Shown: positions 3,198 through 12,600 of the stretch, piece by piece
Layout: the number at the start of each line of letters is the position of its first letter
Position numbering within the stretch: the first letter of the stretch is position 1
Assembly (NCBI GenBank): GCA_000004985.1
Contig: GG738998.1
Length of the DNA: 12,976 nt
DNA from: Naegleria gruberi
Lineage: Eukaryota
Strand: one strand, 5' to 3'
The notes under the pieces: generated by a model
What the model was told of the DNA's origin: nothing
The model's input: the letters and a program-made list of their open reading frames with translations, nothing else
The model's database searches: none
Translations under genes and position numbers: made by a program

Positions 3198-4171
3198 ATG
3201 GAAGCAACAAGTGCACAATTAAATAATCCTTTTAGTGTTTTTGTTTCATCAAATAATGAAGTTTTTATTGCTGACTATAACAATCAAAGCATTAGAAAAG
3301 TATTACAAAATGGAAATATTGTAACAATAGCTGGAAATGGAGATAAAGGATTTAGTGGTGATAATTGTCTAGCAACAAGTGCACAATTAAATAATCCTAT
3401 TGGTGTTTTTGTTTCATCAATGAAGTTTATATTTCTGACTATTGTAATCATGTAATTAGAAAGATTTTACAAAATGGAACTATTGTAACAATTGCTGGAA
3501 ATGGAAAACCTGGATTCGGTGGTGATAATGGCCTAGCAACAAATGCACAGTTGAATTACCCTAGAAATGTATATGTTTCATCAAATAATGAAGTTTATAT
3601 TGCTGACTTTTGTAATCAAAGAATTAGAAAAGTATTACAAAATGGAAATATTATAACAATAGCTGGAAATGGAACTAAAGGATTTAGTGGTGATAATGGT
3701 CCTGCAACAAATGCACAATTAAATGGTCCTGCAGGCGTTTTTGTTTCAAATAATGAAGTCTATATTGCTGACTATAGTAATCATGTAATTAGAAAGATTT
3801 CACAAAATGGAACTATTGTAACTATAGCTGGAAATGGAAAACCTGGATTCAGTGGTGATAATGGACTTGCAACAAATGCACAATTATATAATCCTTCAGG
3901 CACTTTTGTTTCATCAAATAATGAAGTTTATATTTCTGATTGTTTTAATCATGTAATTAGAAAGATTTCACAAAATGGAACTATTGTAACAATTGCTGGA
4001 AATGGGAAAGGAGGATTCAGTGGTGATAATGGTCCTGCAACAAATGCACAATTATATAGTCCTTTAGGTGTTTTTGTTTCCTCAGATAATGAAGTTTATA
4101 TATCTGACTGTTTTAATCATAGAATTAGAAAAGTATTACATAATGGAAATATTGTAACAATAGCTGGAAAT
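3198..4171 (+). CDS. NHL-repeat (six-bladed beta-propeller type) protein; at least 6 tandem 55-56 aa repeats; 1-nt frameshift near 3419-3421; 3' end lost in N-gap
   Basis: Repeated unit ATNAQLxxPxGVFVSSNNEVYIADxxNHxIRKIxQNGTIVTIAGNGxxGFSGDNG recurs every 165-168 bp. The Y/F-V-(A/S)-D ... I-R-K-I ... G-x-I-x-T-I-A-G pattern is the NHL-repeat signature. Start context is aaaaaaaaATG. A single-A deletion in 'tcatcaaatgaagtt' shifts frame 0 to frame 2 (ORFs 3198-3455 and 3551 onward). The ORF runs into the 450-N gap. Confidence 0.6.
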
Positions 4172-4621
4172 NNNNNNNNNNNNNNNNNNNNNNNNNNNNN
4201 NNNNNNNNNNNNNNNNNNNNNNNNNNNNNNNNNNNNNNNNNNNNNNNNNNNNNNNNNNNNNNNNNNNNNNNNNNNNNNNNNNNNNNNNNNNNNNNNNNNN
4301 NNNNNNNNNNNNNNNNNNNNNNNNNNNNNNNNNNNNNNNNNNNNNNNNNNNNNNNNNNNNNNNNNNNNNNNNNNNNNNNNNNNNNNNNNNNNNNNNNNNN
4401 NNNNNNNNNNNNNNNNNNNNNNNNNNNNNNNNNNNNNNNNNNNNNNNNNNNNNNNNNNNNNNNNNNNNNNNNNNNNNNNNNNNNNNNNNNNNNNNNNNNN
4501 NNNNNNNNNNNNNNNNNNNNNNNNNNNNNNNNNNNNNNNNNNNNNNNNNNNNNNNNNNNNNNNNNNNNNNNNNNNNNNNNNNNNNNNNNNNNNNNNNNNN
4601 NNNNNNNNNNNNNNNNNNNNN
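4172..4621. other. Assembly gap (450 N)
   Basis: Run of n characters. ORF-track proteins containing X-runs across it are artefacts. Confidence 0.99.
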
Positions 4622-5028
4622 AAAATTGATCTTTTTTCATTAGTTTGAATTGTTTGTAATGTTGGAACTAATTTCCTTTTTTTGGAAGGTTGTTCTTTTT
4701 GTTCATTTTGTAAAATGTTTGCTGTTAATTTCAATAAATGTTTTTGTAATTCCGCAAATGATGGTCTTGATTTTGGATTATATTCCAAACAACTATTTCC
4801 TATTCTAATAACTTCATTGGCTTGATTGAGTGTTAAACAAGGAAATAATTCCAATAATTCGTTTGTTGAGAGAAAGCAAGTTAATCTTTCATTATTTTCA
4901 ATGTGTTTTTGAGAAAATAATTCATACATTGTAACTCCAAAACTGTAAACATCCAATGCCGTGAGAAGATATTCTTTTTGGAAATCTTTCGGTTTGTGTT
5001 GCATTCGTTTTTCATAAATTTCAGGAGC
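4622..5028 (-). CDS. Ankyrin-repeat Ser/Thr protein kinase, exon 3 (kinase subdomains VIII-XI and C-terminal tail; 3' end in gap)
   Basis: After splicing the protein reads ...TIGGTFQYM|APEIYEKRMQHKP...DVYSFGVTMYELFS..., the canonical GT..YMAPE and D.WS.G subdomains. Acceptor TTCTAAAG ends at 5029-5030 on the minus strand. The ORF continues into N-gap 4172-4621. Confidence 0.7.
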
Positions 5029-7117: not shown

Positions 7118-7540
7118 CCCGCTCATTTTTGTTGACGCATGTTTTGACGATTTTATAGTCATGAATGACGCCTTTGTTTATGCTTGTTAAGGTGTCATTG
7201 GGACGGTGTTGTGGACGTCAAAATGACGTTTTTTTTCGTCATTTTGACGGTGTCAATTTGAGAGTCATTAAGACGTCAAAAAAAGCGTCCTCAATGACGT
7301 CTCAAAAAGTGTCTCCAATGACGTTGCAGAATGATTATTAATTTTTGATAAATTGAAATTTTATTGAACTATTCATAATTCTTACAAGTTGGAAATCTTT
7401 CATCTTGAACCATTTCACACTGAGTGAAACTCAATGCTGTGAAAGATTCACACCGTGTGAATTAATATTGTAAAAGATTTCACACCATCAAAGATGACAA
7501 GGAAATTGACAAGAGTTTCTTTAAAAACGGAAATAAAATT
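7118..7540 (+). repeat. Copy A of transposon left arm (begins with the 12-bp terminus CCCGCTCATTTT; truncated by N-gap)
   Basis: 7118-7499 is base-for-base identical to 8079-8460 (offset 961) through 'gagtttctt'. The last roughly 20 bp differ by small indels before the gap at 7541. Flanks upstream of the two copies are unrelated, so this is not a tandem duplication of locus sequence. Confidence 0.85.
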
Positions 7541-7590
7541 NNNNNNNNNNNNNNNNNNNNNNNNNNNNNNNNNNNNNNNNNNNNNNNNNN
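7541..7590. other. Assembly gap (50 N, conventional unknown-size gap)
   Basis: Run of n characters immediately after repeat copy A. Likely a repeat-induced contig break. Confidence 0.99.
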
Positions 7591-7937
7591 TTTAATAATT
7601 TACTGTATGGATTATTTTCCAAATTTTTCGAATGTTTTGGATTATTTCTAATAAGATACATGGCAATCCAATTAATCGGATCGATCTTTGAGTAGATAGT
7701 ACTCTTTAATTTTTCATATTCTTGTTCCTCTTCCGATTTCGGATCAACTGTTGAATACTCCTTTAATAAGGATTGAAAAGCAGGAATCAGCACTCCCAAA
7801 ATATTTTCCTCCAAATAAAACGACAGCTCATCGCCACCCTCCCGAGCCAATCTAATGGTTGTTTCATCCTCTCCGAGCGATTCCTCAACATGAAAATTGT
7901 ATTCGTGATGAAGAGGCGAAGCAAAGTGCTTTTTCAT
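7591..7937 (-). CDS. Dpy-30/RIIa-like dimerisation-docking domain protein (3' end in gap)
   Basis: ATG at 7937 in an aaaaaaATG context. SFYLEENILGVLIPAFQSLLKE plus DPINWIAMYLIRNNP resemble the two helices of the Dpy-30 motif (YL...V.P.L..GL..L ... DPI.FLA.YLL.N), with about 25 aa inserted between them. The ORF is open into the gap at 7590. Confidence 0.5.
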
Positions 7938-8078
7938 TTTTTTAAATTATTTTTATCGTAGTTATTTTTGGCGCCATTTTAGTCAATCTGAATGGTAATT
8001 AGTTTAAGATCATAAAATATTAGAATTCAAAGAAGTAAGCGAGCGAGTGATAAATATTTTCATTTTGTTTGCCCACTA

Positions 8079-8501
8079 CCCGCTCATTTTTGTTGACGCA
8101 TGTTTTGACGATTTTATAGTCATGAATGACGCCTTTGTTTATGCTTGTTAAGGTGTCATTGGGACGGTGTTGTGGACGTCAAAATGACGTTTTTTTTCGT
8201 CATTTTGACGGTGTCAATTTGAGAGTCATTAAGACGTCAAAAAAAGCGTCCTCAATGACGTCTCAAAAAGTGTCTCCAATGACGTTGCAGAATGATTATT
8301 AATTTTTGATAAATTGAAATTTTATTGAACTATTCATAATTCTTACAAGTTGGAAATCTTTCATCTTGAACCATTTCACACTGAGTGAAACTCAATGCTG
8401 TGAAAGATTCACACCGTGTGAATTAATATTGTAAAAGATTTCACACCATCAAAGATGACAAGGAAATTGACAAGAGTTTCTTATAAAAACGTGAAATAAA
8501 A
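8079..8501 (+). repeat. Copy B of transposon left arm (terminus plus TGACG subterminal array plus TTTCACAC motif cluster)
   Basis: Identical to 7118-7499. Contains the palindromic core AAAATGACG-T8-CGTCATTTT (8185-8210) and six GTGAAA/TTTCAC(AC) motifs in both orientations at 8375-8450. Confidence 0.85.
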
Positions 8502-8665
8502 ATTTGAATTGATATGTCTTGTAAATGAATTGAAATGATGTAATATAATTGATAACTGATACGACTTACTAGTATGTTGAGGTATTTTTTTTGAAAAATA
8601 TTTTAAACTGGTTGCAAAAATAGAAAGTGTTTATTTTAGAGATGAAGCCAAATATGGAAAGACAT

Positions 8666-10840
8666 TTAATATAATGTAAAGGCCATTTTGTGAATTGGTT
8701 TGAAGTGAAAAGAGCCATTAATTTGCTGGCATATTGCTGGTATGAAATCTTGTTTGATAGTGTCTTGTGAGACGGTGATTGTTGTGCCATTAACAGCATG
8801 TCGAATCTCAATTTGTGAATAATTTGGAGAAAATGAATTGACTTGATAAATTTCTTTAGAGGGAGTGTGTAACAAGTAATCTCTTTTGCTATTGATTATA
8901 TAATTACCACAGACACATTCTAGTTTACGATTGGGAGGTTTCAAGTTCAATAATTGTACCAAATTTACCATATCAAAGAATAGAATTGAATATCTTAAAG
9001 AATTGGCACATTTGAAGGGTTTTGAGAGAATGTTATTCATTGCCTCAAAAATAAATGCGTTATTGCACCACAATGGACCATATAGACGGCAGTTCATTAC
9101 CATTTCAGCTGCTATGTGAAAATTTGGAGAGCAAAAATTAGCATCCTTCTTTTGAAAAAAGTACAGAACTGAGTTTAGCTGTTTCTGCAATAATGGAAGA
9201 TCTTCTAATTGAAATGAGTCCATTAGCTTATCAATAATTCTCACATATTGAATAATGTGTTGAACTATTTCTTGAATTTCACTATAGCTCGGAATTTCCT
9301 CAAATAATTCGAGATAATAATGACACAAAATGTAAACTTCAATGGATTTCAGGTGATTGATATTTTTTGCAATGGATCTTGGGTGCTTGTGAAAAAAGGA
9401 GGGAAACTTCTGTTTTAAATAAATGACATCAAATTCTTTCCAATATCGTTCATCAATTAAATTGAGAAATTTCACCAAAATACCTTCATAATTGTAATGC
9501 ATGTTATCATATGAACAGAGACATGTTGGATTAGGATTGAATGGTTGTAATAGGATTGGAGAAACACTATCCATTCCGGGTGGTAGATTTGAGTTTGGAA
9601 AATTGTTAATGAGAGAAATCTCATTGTGATATTCTCTGTATTTGAATTTTTCAAAAACCTCAATGAGTTCTGATTTTCCATTCAATACTACTAATCTTGT
9701 TCGAAACTCCAATGGATAAACTTTGTGAGAACCAGATGTATCTTCACCCTTAGTGTTACACAAGTGACAAAAATAAAATCCTTGGCGTTTAAAGAATAAA
9801 ATCTCTGATCTTGCAGGAAGGTCAGCAATTACTCGTTCAATTATCATTTCCAAATTAAGGTTTTTTTGATTTGAATTTAGACAATTCAGATCATTCATTA
9901 TTACTTTGAGTCCAATTTCAATATCTATCTTATCAGGTTTCCTTGGTAAAATGGCCCATAGAAAATTATTGGTAGATTTCTTTCGATCAGAAGGACTCAT
10001 TTCATTAAACTGTACAATGAAATTATAGAAATTATTCAAGCTCTTTTTAAATGGTGAAACTCCATCACCATTGAGAGTACCAGTGAGTCTTTTTGTTGAA
10101 ATGGTTTCATCAATCCAAGGTTGGTGAATTTTTCTAAATATTTCACCTCCTTGACGATCAGAAATTGTTGAGCTATCATTATGACCTTGGTAATTGAGTG
10201 TTTCATTAATAAAGTTTGGTTCAAAAGCTATTCTTTCTTGGAAAGCATATTCTAAAGGGCGCCAAAATAAATAATCATCTTTTTGCCAAATCTTTTCACA
10301 AGAACAATGAGTGTGTTGATTATCATGTTGAAAATCTTTACATTCTCTGCAATAGTGTATCTTTTTGGTCTTGCAATTCAAGTTATAATGTCCATAAAAT
10401 CCATTCAATGTTAGCATCTGCGAGAAATCTTCTTGGGGTGCCTCTTTAACCAAATTAGCACATTTTCCAATTAACTGGAGCATACTTTCAAGATTACTTT
10501 CTGATAATTGAGCTGAGGTTGTAAATTTCAAAATCTCGTTCATTATACGCTTTATAGGAAGAGAGAGATTATTCCAATGGTGAAGATTAAAATCAACTTG
10601 AGTAGAAGACCATTCAGATTCGCTTGTTAGTGTGTCTTCTTCTCTAATATCTTGAATTGGATCTATGTCATCTGTTGTATAACTTGACTCATCATCCTCA
10701 TCACTAATTTCTAATCTTTCTTCAATGTCATCACTCATTTTGTCATTACTGTTTGAAAAGTTGGTGGAATCTTGGTTATATCGAATATTGGCTAAGTATA
10801 TTGAGTTCTTGTTGGGCATTTCTTTTTGTTTAAGAAACAT
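8666..10840 (-). CDS. Transposase, Transposase_21 (Tnp2/En-Spm TnpD/KDZ) family, 724 aa
   Basis: GTLNGDGVSPF...FNEMSPSDRKK...FLWAILPRKPDKIDIEIGLKVIMNDLNCL aligns by eye to the Transposase_21 core (lSlStDGfnPF ... YNLPP..R.K...fl..LIPGPk.P.d.IDVYL.PLieEL..LW). The N-terminal Cys/His cluster IHYCRECKDFQHDNQHTHCSCEKIW resembles the transposase-associated zinc domain. The C-terminal LYGPLWCNNAFIFEAMNNIL resembles the GPV..RWMYPFERYM motif (DUF4218) of CACTA transposases. Single uninterrupted ORF. The reverse-complement region around 8629-8634 ('tttatt') supplies an AATAAA near the 3' end. Confidence 0.8.
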   Translation of the reverse strand: MFLKQKEMPNKNSIYLANIRYNQDSTNFSNSNDKMSDDIEERLEISDEDDESSYTTDDIDPIQDIREEDTLTSESEWSSTQVDFNLHHWNNLSLPIKRIMNEILKFTTSAQLSESNLESMLQLIGKCANLVKEAPQEDFSQMLTLNGFYGHYNLNCKTKKIHYCRECKDFQHDNQHTHCSCEKIWQKDDYLFWRPLEYAFQERIAFEPNFINETLNYQGHNDSSTISDRQGGEIFRKIHQPWIDETISTKRLTGTLNGDGVSPFKKSLNNFYNFIVQFNEMSPSDRKKSTNNFLWAILPRKPDKIDIEIGLKVIMNDLNCLNSNQKNLNLEMIIERVIADLPARSEILFFKRQGFYFCHLCNTKGEDTSGSHKVYPLEFRTRLVVLNGKSELIEVFEKFKYREYHNEISLINNFPNSNLPPGMDSVSPILLQPFNPNPTCLCSYDNMHYNYEGILVKFLNLIDERYWKEFDVIYLKQKFPSFFHKHPRSIAKNINHLKSIEVYILCHYYLELFEEIPSYSEIQEIVQHIIQYVRIIDKLMDSFQLEDLPLLQKQLNSVLYFFQKKDANFCSPNFHIAAEMVMNCRLYGPLWCNNAFIFEAMNNILSKPFKCANSLRYSILFFDMVNLVQLLNLKPPNRKLECVCGNYIINSKRDYLLHTPSKEIYQVNSFSPNYSQIEIRHAVNGTTITVSQDTIKQDFIPAICQQINGSFHFKPIHKMAFTLY

Positions 10841-10872
10841 GATGGATCTTGATCAAGGTAAACTTTAAAAAA

Positions 10873-12303
10873 ATGGCTCCAAAGAAAACCAAGAAAGCTA
10901 AAGAGCGAGCTATTTCTATCAAATGGAAAGTTCAAAAAAGTAATACCAAAACTTCTTCTAGTACTGATGAAAATTCATCCATTCTCACAAATTTGAAAGG
11001 AAGTGCCTATAGTGCCTATCAAACCTATTTCGCAAAGGAAGAGGCAGAAAAGTCTTCTCTTGTTAAAGAATTTGTTCAAATAATTAATTATTGGTGTATT
11101 TCAAGAGAGAGAGATAGAAAGTTAGTTAATTTTCAAAGTGAATCCTTAGCTAATTTGGTCCAATTTTTGAAAACTGATACATTTTACCAAGAATTTAAAA
11201 TAGATATCAAAGATTTCACTCTGAATCTGTTGGCAACAAAGGATCTTGCAACAAAGAATCATAGATTAGAAGTTGATTCAGTCCAAGAACCAAAATTAAA
11301 TGATTTCGTAAACATATTAGAAATGGATGATACAGATGTCAATTACTATATCATTCCAGCAATTGGTAAAGTAGTGAACGAAGATCCATTCCAAGTTTCA
11401 ATCGAACACCACAATCACATCCACTATGAGAAAAAGTATTCCAAAAAAACTCCAATCTCAGTATCGAAGGACATGACGAGCGTAATAGAAGCCTATGAGG
11501 AGACAGAGCCAAACTTTTCAACCATGCTACCTAGTAATAGAATTTCTGTTAACATTACCCCATCTAAAAGAAAGTCAAAAGCAAAGAAACCGTCTTGTAA
11601 TGAAATTTCAGATAATAACTCAGAACCAACCAATAAGATGTCAACTAGAAAAAACAAATCTAAAACAGCTGCTCCAAAGAGGAAGAATCAATCTGATGAA
11701 GATGAATCAAGTACTGATACAGATAATGATTCTGAACCAAGCAAGAAAAAACAATTTAAACCATCTTCCAGTAAACAACTAGTGAAGACAGTGAAGAAGA
11801 CCATGTCAGTTCATGATTCAGATAGTGATGAATCCACCACTGAAGATTCAGAAAATGGTACTAGTGACTCCACAGAATCTGTCTATTTTCAAGTTCGTCA
11901 CGTTAATGGAAAACGGGAATATGTGATTGTTCCAGAGCATGTCGATTACATCTTTGATTTGATAGATAAGGACAAAGCTTTTCCAGAGTTCATCAATGCC
12001 ATTATCCAATGTGAAAAGGTATTAACTGACCTCACAAAAAGGTTTGCTCATCTATTTTCAGGGCTTGCATTCAACACTACCGTAAATGGTATAACTTATT
12101 CAATTCCTCCAGACATTATCAAAATGCTTATTGGTAATGTGACTCAAAAACAGTGCTTGGAATTGTTAGCACATCATCACTTCAAGAAACCTATAGGAGA
12201 ACTCACAACTGATCAAAGAACAGTATGTAGAAAGTTCTTTGAAGCAAGGGGATGGGATAAAGAAAGTGTTCGGAAGGCAATCAATAGTTTGATCAAAGAA
12301 TAA
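10873..12303 (+). CDS. Transposon ORF2: 476-aa lysine/serine/acidic-rich protein with a structured C-terminal domain of about 150 aa; function unknown
   Basis: The ORF track starts at a TTG (10849). The first ATG is 10873, in a ctttaaaaaaATG context matching other genes here, and is only 32 bp from the transposase ATG (10840) on the other strand. The basic N-terminus (MAPKKTKKAKER) and poly-acidic/Ser tracts (SDEDESSTDTDNDSE, SVHDSDSDESTTEDSENGTSDSTES) suggest a nuclear, possibly DNA/chromatin-binding protein. No known motif in the C-terminal VYFQVRHVNGKREYVIVPEHVDYIFDLI... region. Confidence 0.6.
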   Translation: MAPKKTKKAKERAISIKWKVQKSNTKTSSSTDENSSILTNLKGSAYSAYQTYFAKEEAEKSSLVKEFVQIINYWCISRERDRKLVNFQSESLANLVQFLKTDTFYQEFKIDIKDFTLNLLATKDLATKNHRLEVDSVQEPKLNDFVNILEMDDTDVNYYIIPAIGKVVNEDPFQVSIEHHNHIHYEKKYSKKTPISVSKDMTSVIEAYEETEPNFSTMLPSNRISVNITPSKRKSKAKKPSCNEISDNNSEPTNKMSTRKNKSKTAAPKRKNQSDEDESSTDTDNDSEPSKKKQFKPSSSKQLVKTVKKTMSVHDSDSDESTTEDSENGTSDSTESVYFQVRHVNGKREYVIVPEHVDYIFDLIDKDKAFPEFINAIIQCEKVLTDLTKRFAHLFSGLAFNTTVNGITYSIPPDIIKMLIGNVTQKQCLELLAHHHFKKPIGELTTDQRTVCRKFFEARGWDKESVRKAINSLIKE

Positions 12304-12520
12304 TTTCTAGACATGATGTTAAGCTTGATGAACAAGTCAAGCTTGTGAAATTTGTATTTTTTTTTTAAAATTTTCAAAAATATTCACAAGTCTGAAATAC
12401 GTCACCTCCTCCTTCACTGATTTTCATCATCAAAACAACACAAAACAAACAACAACAAATAAACAACACATTACAACATCAAGTAGAACACAACAGAATA
12501 TCGATAATTAACTTTGGAGT

Positions 12521-12600
12521 AACTTTATGCAAAATCGTCAGCGATGACGTCAAAAAAAGCGTCAATCCACCATCAGGAATGACGAAATAAAATGAGCGGG
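12521..12600 (-). repeat. Transposon right arm (inverted terminus AAAATGAGCGGG plus TGACG/CGTCA subterminal repeats)
   Basis: Reverse-complement of 12589-12600 is CCCGCTCATTTT. Upstream motifs are aatCGTCAgc, gaTGACGTCaaaaaaaGCGTCaat and gaaTGACGaaat. The subterminal sequence is related to, but diverged from, the left arm, as is typical for CACTA-like elements whose two arms differ. Confidence 0.7.

Follow-up and report, generated by a model that had tools for sequence, protein, structure and literature searches.

A second, head-to-head gene inside a probable CMC-type DNA transposon of Naegleria gruberi as a putative accessory protein of transposition

In this study, we explored the open reading frame (ORF) ORF2 on a complete 12,976-bp scaffold of Naegleria gruberi (contig GG738998.1, in the following called the window), which stands head-to-head with the ORF of a DDE transposase. 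ORF2 lies inside the terminal inverted repeats (TIRs) of a transposon and is paired with the transposase in all copies examined, i.e. in the contig L001 described below and in seven copies from N. lovaniensis. We consider it somewhat more probable than not that ORF2, as one of two genes in an autonomous Naegleria transposon of the CACTA/Mirage/Chapaev (CMC) group, encodes a nuclear DNA-binding helper of transposition. The head-to-head arrangement, first noticed in a reading of the letters alone (the sequence-only reading), is borne out by coordinates and strands. That reading left open whether ORF2 belongs to the element and named single-copy host homologues, together with element copies devoid of ORF2, as signs of a host gene; both were searched for, with an outcome that favours an element-borne gene. 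Its suggestion of a captured host gene is disfavoured, since no host homologue turned up in protein databases, and, apart from one N. gruberi copy (P0004, see below), every ORF2 homologue found lies in an element copy. The frame itself runs on the plus strand from a first ATG at 10873 to a stop codon at 12301–12303, with the program-called frame opening at a TTG at 10849. With 476 uninterrupted codons in DNA of 32% G+C, kept open in the diverged L001 at a synonymous divergence (dS) of about 0.4, it is far beyond chance.

The right boundary of the element could be fixed by comparison with L001, a 2,967-bp Logan contig (SRR28981358), which carries an ORF2 homologue (P0001, 66–72% identity) head-to-head with a transposase that is 86–88% identical over 334 aa. 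Downstream of ORF2, the alignment between window and L001 runs to ...TGAGCGGG, at 12600, beyond which 42 of 207 columns match. Since the similarity stops exactly at this position, the right terminus is fixed and two different insertion sites are established. The termini CCCGCT...AGCGGG are common to the elements of N. gruberi, L001 and N. lovaniensis; the ends read CCCGCT and not CACTA. In the window, TGACG occurs 33 times against 8.5 ± 2.9 expected, a number reached in 0 of 200 shuffles, and 26 of these 33 motifs sit in three end regions, which confirms that such repeats are concentrated at both element ends. The L001 flank abutting the right end (positions 2815–2967) contains a stop-free frame +2 reading ...VQKTLTHPAYSAKTLDNDI, which looks like a fragment of a trypsin-family (S1) serine protease; the L001 copy may have inserted into a protease gene or right next to one.

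Further copies are present in N. gruberi itself. At least one more ORF2 copy (P0004, NAEGRDRAFT_58999), annotated with 221 aa and 99% identical with two substitutions, lies on a 339-kb scaffold, and a second copy of the element's left end is found within the window, where a repeat search showed 7118–7417 to be identical to 8079–8378. The left flank of this second end differs (...caacCT). The window copy is flanked by TA/CT, or by CT/CT if the left end at 7118 pairs with the right end at 12600. On one reading, a single insertion with a 2-bp target site duplication (TSD) extends from 7118 to 12600, and 7592–8078, holding a Dpy-30-like gene, was mis-scaffolded; on the other reading, two insertions lie 1 kb apart at 7118 and 8079.

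The sequence-only reading had placed the two start codons 32 bp apart. The minus-strand ATG at 10838–10840 which gives this spacing exists, but it is missing in L001, where a 1-nt indel also breaks the frame. The transposase start shared by both copies is MPNKNS at 10819. Measured from there, and not from the non-conserved ATG at 10840, the start codons lie 53 bp apart in the window and 55 bp apart in L001; in N. lovaniensis, the distance is 171 bp. Host head-to-head pairs in the N. lovaniensis loci are 195–1125 bp apart, and the spacer of the element is therefore genuinely short. Aligned with L001, 46 of 56 columns of the spacer are identical, a conservation above that of synonymous sites (pS 0.27–0.32), and the palindrome CTTGATCAAG is found in both spacers. 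Ten-bp palindromes number 18 in the window, and we therefore down-weighted CTTGATCAAG as a special operator, only its conservation being notable. The N. gruberi spacer contains no TGACG motif. In the 171-bp spacer of N. lovaniensis (L003, 7830–8000), CGTTAA is present at 7863 and 7960 and TTGACG at 7917, which hints that a binder of the element ends might also bind the internal promoter in this species.

The transposase (NAEGRDRAFT_54699) is 100% identical to 'predicted protein [Naegleria gruberi]', and its NCBI gene model begins at M35, later than the MPNKNS start. By its motifs it appears to fit the CMC group only loosely. Pfam Transposase_21 (tnp2, PF02992) matches with E = 0.005 and 16.4 bits, under the cut-off of 28.6 bits, and the N. 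lovaniensis homologue has no Pfam PF02992 match; it is nevertheless probably a transposase of the CMC type, although the match is sub-threshold. The motifs GDGV[SA]PF, ERVIADLPARSEIL, YFCHLC and CSYD.MH..YEGI are common to this homologue (P0003, 40% identity), and GDGVSPF, ADLPA, CHLC and D.MH..YEG are kept, as are the D, D and C(2)C motifs. The protein additionally bears a zinc-ribbon-like CxxC...CxC motif. When the PDB was searched with a transposase profile, only noise was obtained, and neither RAG1 nor Transib appeared; metagenome scans, run once for the transposase and once for ORF2, returned nothing. The genome paper of N. lovaniensis lists 'CMC-EnSpm' repeats (PMC6125883), an entry not tied to this element.

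The same family is represented in N. lovaniensis by a 5.9-kb CMC element (transposase of the C9374_004752 type, partner C9374_006471 / C9374_011720). It has in common with the N. gruberi element the CCCGCT termini (here CCCGCTACTCGCGG...CCATGAGAAGCGGG), subterminal repeats of the TTGACG type, the head-to-head layout, the C-terminal domain (C-domain) of the partner and the 40%-identical transposase, while it differs in its 171-bp spacer, the unrelated N-terminal two-thirds of the partner, a coiled coil and about 1.9 kb of extra sequence beyond the partner gene. The transposase is encoded by identical genes at several loci. We retrieved seven copies at seven different sites, four of them full-length and three internally deleted, which are 99.5–99.9% identical with unrelated flanks in pairwise BLASTN, and a gene divergent from the transposase is present in all seven. 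The flanking dinucleotides are identical in four of the seven (AA, TG, GA, TT), where about 0.4 would be expected by chance, which fits a 2-bp TSD with some later change. The partner protein begins with a basic tail, MKRTKSHPGKNATKKTK, and displays a clear coiled coil, resembling a leucine zipper, directly before the C-domain, and the element ends carry related T[TG]/[GA]ACG motifs.

Three observations on these loci should be added. The deleted derivative (L006, L007 and L008) of about 4,675 bp has been amplified to at least three loci; its deletion takes both N-termini and the original spacer, and the remaining gene models, of 587 aa for the transposase and 257 aa for the partner, are separated by 108 bp. 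The roughly 1.9 kb from the partner stop codon to the element terminus (L003, 4497–6423) contains no long ORF, and its first ~230 bp are dense in TTGACG/TTAACG repeats. Contig PYSW02000069 features a large inverted duplication of host genes beside the element (L004, 16800–16837 and genes 10410–16779), with a second right end of the element at the contig edge.

Searching 5.8 billion proteins by word index and 1.8 billion representatives exhaustively with phmmer, we obtained only P0001 and P0004 as ORF2 homologues, with no free-standing host homologue among the representative proteins, and the matches of the N. lovaniensis partner are lovaniensis paralogues only. Comparison of ORF2 with this partner by whole-protein BLASTP and tblastn was not significant, and the sole match in hhalign was the co-linear C-terminal region (P = 0.012). 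Homology between the partners was seen only once the comparison was confined to the C-domain and tested by shuffling, where local alignment scores of 52 (window) and 70 (L001) stand against 28–29 ± 4.7–4.9 for shuffles, corresponding to z = 5.0 and z = 8.4. N-domain comparisons and cross-domain controls gave z of about 0. The C-domain of the accessory gene is therefore ancestral to the element family and, as judged from these alignments, has descended along with the transposase ever since the element lineages of N. gruberi and N. lovaniensis separated. The N-terminal parts of the partner genes have apparently either diverged past recognition or been replaced.

Between window and L001 (Nei–Gojobori; dS 0.33–0.42), the ratio of nonsynonymous to synonymous divergence (dN/dS) is 0.38 for whole ORF2 (466 codons), with 0.17 for the basic tail, 0.25 for the N-domain, 0.52 for the linker and 0.56 for the C-domain, compared to 0.20 for the transposase. 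By this measure, ORF2 is under purifying selection. Its protein is most likely fast-evolving.

The basic tail, acidic/Ser tracts and non-repetitive C-terminal part of about 140 aa that had been described for ORF2 are each found in the translation, the tail reading MAPKKTKKAKER and the tracts SDEDESSTDTDNDSE and HDSDSDESTTEDSENGTSDSTES. Structure prediction with AlphaFold2 (AF2) from the single full-length sequence reached a predicted local distance difference test score (pLDDT) of 37 and is unusable, as is the model of residues 36–215 (pLDDT 25–39). For the C-domain, modelled from a three-sequence alignment, the mean pLDDT is 52, with a beta-hairpin and four helices (residues about 399–476) at pLDDT 50–76. 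The values listed with this model are 5.8 for BEND3, 5.7 for Bsg25A (with DNA), 5.1 for NACC1 (with DNA) and 4.3 each for BANP and BEND6, and other small helical DNA binders stand among the same entries. Pfam searches at E <= 10 with full-length ORF2, three sub-fragments, P0001 and the N. lovaniensis partner gave noise only, the sole entry for ORF2 being Ndc1_Nup at E = 4.8. The UniRef label 'SPK domain-containing protein' (D2W4Y1) was not reproduced, with no match to Pfam-A SPK (PF04435) at E <= 10; it may stem from a marginal SMART (SM00583) match and be unreliable. SPK domains have been reported to be Myb-like in fold (bioRxiv 10.1101/2025.03.25.645221). Taken as hints, model and label would both indicate that ORF2 ends in a small DNA-binding module made of helices.

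We additionally observed that the last ~50 residues of the transposase (about 662–709; window 8690–8830) resemble residues of about 390–445 of ORF2 (12040–12210). The pattern shared by the transposase tail and the first half of the C-domain is F.P..S......VNGT..T.....K......C.QI....HF.KP, with z = 4.8 for the window ORF2 and z = 8.7 for the L001 ORF2 against shuffles. A small profile puts the transposase first of 4,003 sequences by a margin of only about 2 bits, and in the N. lovaniensis pair the likeness could not be detected. A partial duplication may lie behind it, or a module used by both proteins for interaction or DNA contact.

We propose a model in which the ORF2 protein would enter the nucleus, given its basic tail, which resembles a nuclear localisation signal (NLS), and its KRK patches. 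The small helical, BEN-like domain at its C-terminus would recognise DNA of the element itself, most probably its subterminal TGACG repeats, and the remainder of the protein could multimerise and/or contact the transposase, by which the ends would be brought together and the transposase recruited. The acidic/Ser linker might serve as a regulatory or flexible tether. ORF2 would in this way do the job of En/Spm TnpA and of the PIF/Harbinger Myb-like protein. We favour such a role because of the NLS-like tail, the coiled coil upstream of the lovaniensis C-domain, the TGACG-type arrays conserved in both lineages, and the zinc-ribbon-like motif of the transposase, which makes the latter a plausible TIR reader. 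Several points weigh against this model. Binding of ORF2 to element DNA is a prediction, and the transposase, having a CxxC...CxC motif of its own, might not need a partner to bind the repeats. No similarity is seen between the N-terminal domains of the two lineages. Of all parts of ORF2, the C-domain has the highest dN/dS, an unexpected result for a conserved DNA-reading domain, except if the domain and its target sites evolve together. The structure models are poor for C-domain and full-length protein alike, and Foldseek with the C-domain model found no match at E below 0.07 in PDB and BFVD. ORF2 matches neither BEN (PF10523) nor SPK or Myb in Pfam at E <= 10, and PDB sequence searches with the ORF2 protein and a C-domain profile were empty, without BEN chains.

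The main alternative is autoregulation of the compact divergent promoter. ORF2 would then be element-borne, but act chiefly as a transcriptional regulator or repressor at the divergent promoter and/or the ends, limiting copy number in the manner of BEN-solo factors, which are sequence-specific repressors, for which we see a limited though real chance. The 53-bp spacer, conserved above synonymous sites together with its palindrome, the three subterminal-type motifs in the N. lovaniensis spacer (CGTTAA twice, TTGACG once) and the low copy number in both genomes would agree with it, while the frequency of ten-bp palindromes in the AT-rich window, the lack of TGACG in the N. gruberi spacer and the weak fold assignment speak against it. 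Such a role is also compatible with that of a transposition cofactor. En/Spm TnpA acts both as a regulator and in transposition.

That ORF2 is a passenger captured by the ancestral element, with no part in transposition, appears improbable to us. Its lack of similarity to any known transposon accessory protein in Pfam and protein database searches could be read in this way, and the unrelated N-terminal halves of the gruberi and lovaniensis partners could be independent acquisitions fused to a common C-terminal piece. However, no donor host gene was found in N. gruberi, N. lovaniensis or the searched databases, the partner gene has retained its place, its orientation and its C-domain while the transposases drifted apart to 40% identity, selection on ORF2 is purifying, and the amplified N. 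lovaniensis deletion derivative still holds the C-terminal half of the partner. An ordinary host gene beside a possibly domesticated transposase, as the annotation of only one transposase protein in N. gruberi might suggest, is already contradicted and in our view hardly credible: ORF2 lies inside the TIRs, the L001 pair resides at a different site with unrelated flanks, a second identical left end is present in the same scaffold and a second ORF2 copy on another one, and the seven N. lovaniensis copies are dispersed and 99.5–99.9% identical, with neither L001 nor lovaniensis flanks being syntenic. The features of the element and of ORF2 are collected in Table 1.

Table 1. Features of the element and of ORF2 in the window (strand given as + or -, a dot where none applies)
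Feature	Position	Strand	Remarks
Complete transposon copy, transposase and ORF2 inside	8079..12600	.	4,522 bp; perfect 12-bp TIRs
Left TIR, CCCGCTCATTTT	8079..8090	+	reverse complement of 12589-12600, read in sequence
Right TIR, AAAATGAGCGGG	12589..12600	+	read in sequence; L001 counterpart AAATTGAGCGGG, then unrelated flank
Left subterminal cluster	8094..8284	.	10 TGACG/CGTCA motifs; repeat families D1 and I19 map here
Right subterminal cluster	12400..12584	.	6 TGACG/CGTCA motifs; best-conserved non-coding stretch vs L001
Second copy of element left end	7118..7541	+	100% identical; cut by 50-N gap 7542-7591
Transposase gene	8666..10819	-	717 aa from conserved start; non-conserved ATG upstream at 10840
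Divergent spacer between start codons	10820..10872	.	53 bp; holds CTTGATCAAG at 10848-10857
ORF2, putative accessory protein gene	10873..12303	+	476 aa; NAEGRDRAFT_82336, EFC35873.1, UniProt D2W4Y1 (exact look-up)
ORF2 residues 1-35, basic NLS-like tail	10873..10977	+	9 K, 1 R in 35; net charge +7
ORF2 residues 36-215, predicted helical N-terminal domain	10978..11517	+	more constrained of the two folded domains
ORF2 residues 216-335, low-complexity K/S/D/E linker	11518..11877	+	KRK patches, S-D/E tracts; no predicted secondary structure
ORF2 residues 336-476, C-terminal domain	11878..12300	+	sole part conserved across both Naegleria element lineages
ORF2 residues about 398-476, candidate BEN-like DNA-binding module	12064..12300	+	beta-hairpin and four helices

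The rest of the window holds ordinary eukaryotic genes, encoding NHL-repeat proteins, a protein kinase and a Dpy-30-motif protein, as well as two N runs. The N run at about 4125–4640 breaks the NHL-repeat ORFs and the C-terminal part of the kinase gene (window 3198–4648 and 4117–5004), and the dip in G+C at 4001–5000 is consequently an assembly-gap artefact and not biology.

Within the CMC group, the element varies the known 'transposase plus accessory protein' scheme by its unusual layout and is not a new system. The finding opens no new category of biology. Two-gene DNA transposons (En/Spm, PIF/Harbinger, MuDR) are models for accessory proteins which assemble transposition complexes and become host regulators, and a heterolobosean CMC element with a divergent, lineage-restricted accessory protein would carry this two-gene theme to a deep-branching protist. 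The near-identical copies of N. lovaniensis, which were probably recently active, constitute a defined system for studying accessory-protein function, and two 'hypothetical' Naegleria genes, one with an unconfirmed 'SPK domain' label, can be re-annotated as transposon genes. In the searchable literature we found no prior description of the Naegleria element, its locus tags or the combination of SPK and transposase, nor of a BEN protein as accessory protein of a eukaryotic transposon. That the Naegleria element is the first eukaryotic cut-and-paste transposon with a BEN-type accessory, an ultra-compact bidirectional promoter and a ~50-residue module shared with the C-terminal tail of the transposase seems doubtful to us. 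If this were true, transposon accessory genes could be a source of BEN-solo chromatin factors, and two divergent genes with CCCGCT termini would represent a new CMC architecture.

Among known systems, the BEN-solo factors (Insv, Elba1/2, Bsg25A, BEND5/6) and the BEN domains of BANP and NACC1 show no sequence match to ORF2; BEN proteins are either chromatin factors of the host or encoded by viruses, and the likeness of ORF2 to them rests on a low-confidence model. PIF/Harbinger elements follow the same logic, in that a DDE transposase is combined with a separate small helical DNA-binding protein and the two genes are independent transcription units. Through the Myb-like protein, the transposase of these elements is brought into the nucleus and to the element ends. 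In contrast to the Naegleria element, their transposase is PIF/IS5-like and not CMC, and the second protein has a recognisable Myb/SANT domain, whereas ORF2 has no Myb match. With En/Spm (CACTA), the Naegleria element shares a second element-encoded protein beside a CMC-type DDE transposase and short subterminal repeat arrays at both ends, which such a protein could bind, and low-complexity regions and fast evolution, as in ORF2, are typical for accessory proteins of the TnpA type. As had been anticipated, ORF2 is unrelated in sequence to TnpA, with no Pfam match (including Transposase_24) at E <= 10, and the divergent layout differs from that of En/Spm, the genes lying on opposite strands, start to start. 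TnpA and TnpD are alternative splice products of one transcription unit, while ORF2 is divergent from the transposase across a 53-bp spacer, and the CACTA ends and 3-bp TSD of En/Spm contrast with CCCGCT ends and a TSD of apparently 2 bp in Naegleria. ORF2 can thus be regarded as a probable analogue of TnpA in function and not as a member of the TnpA family.

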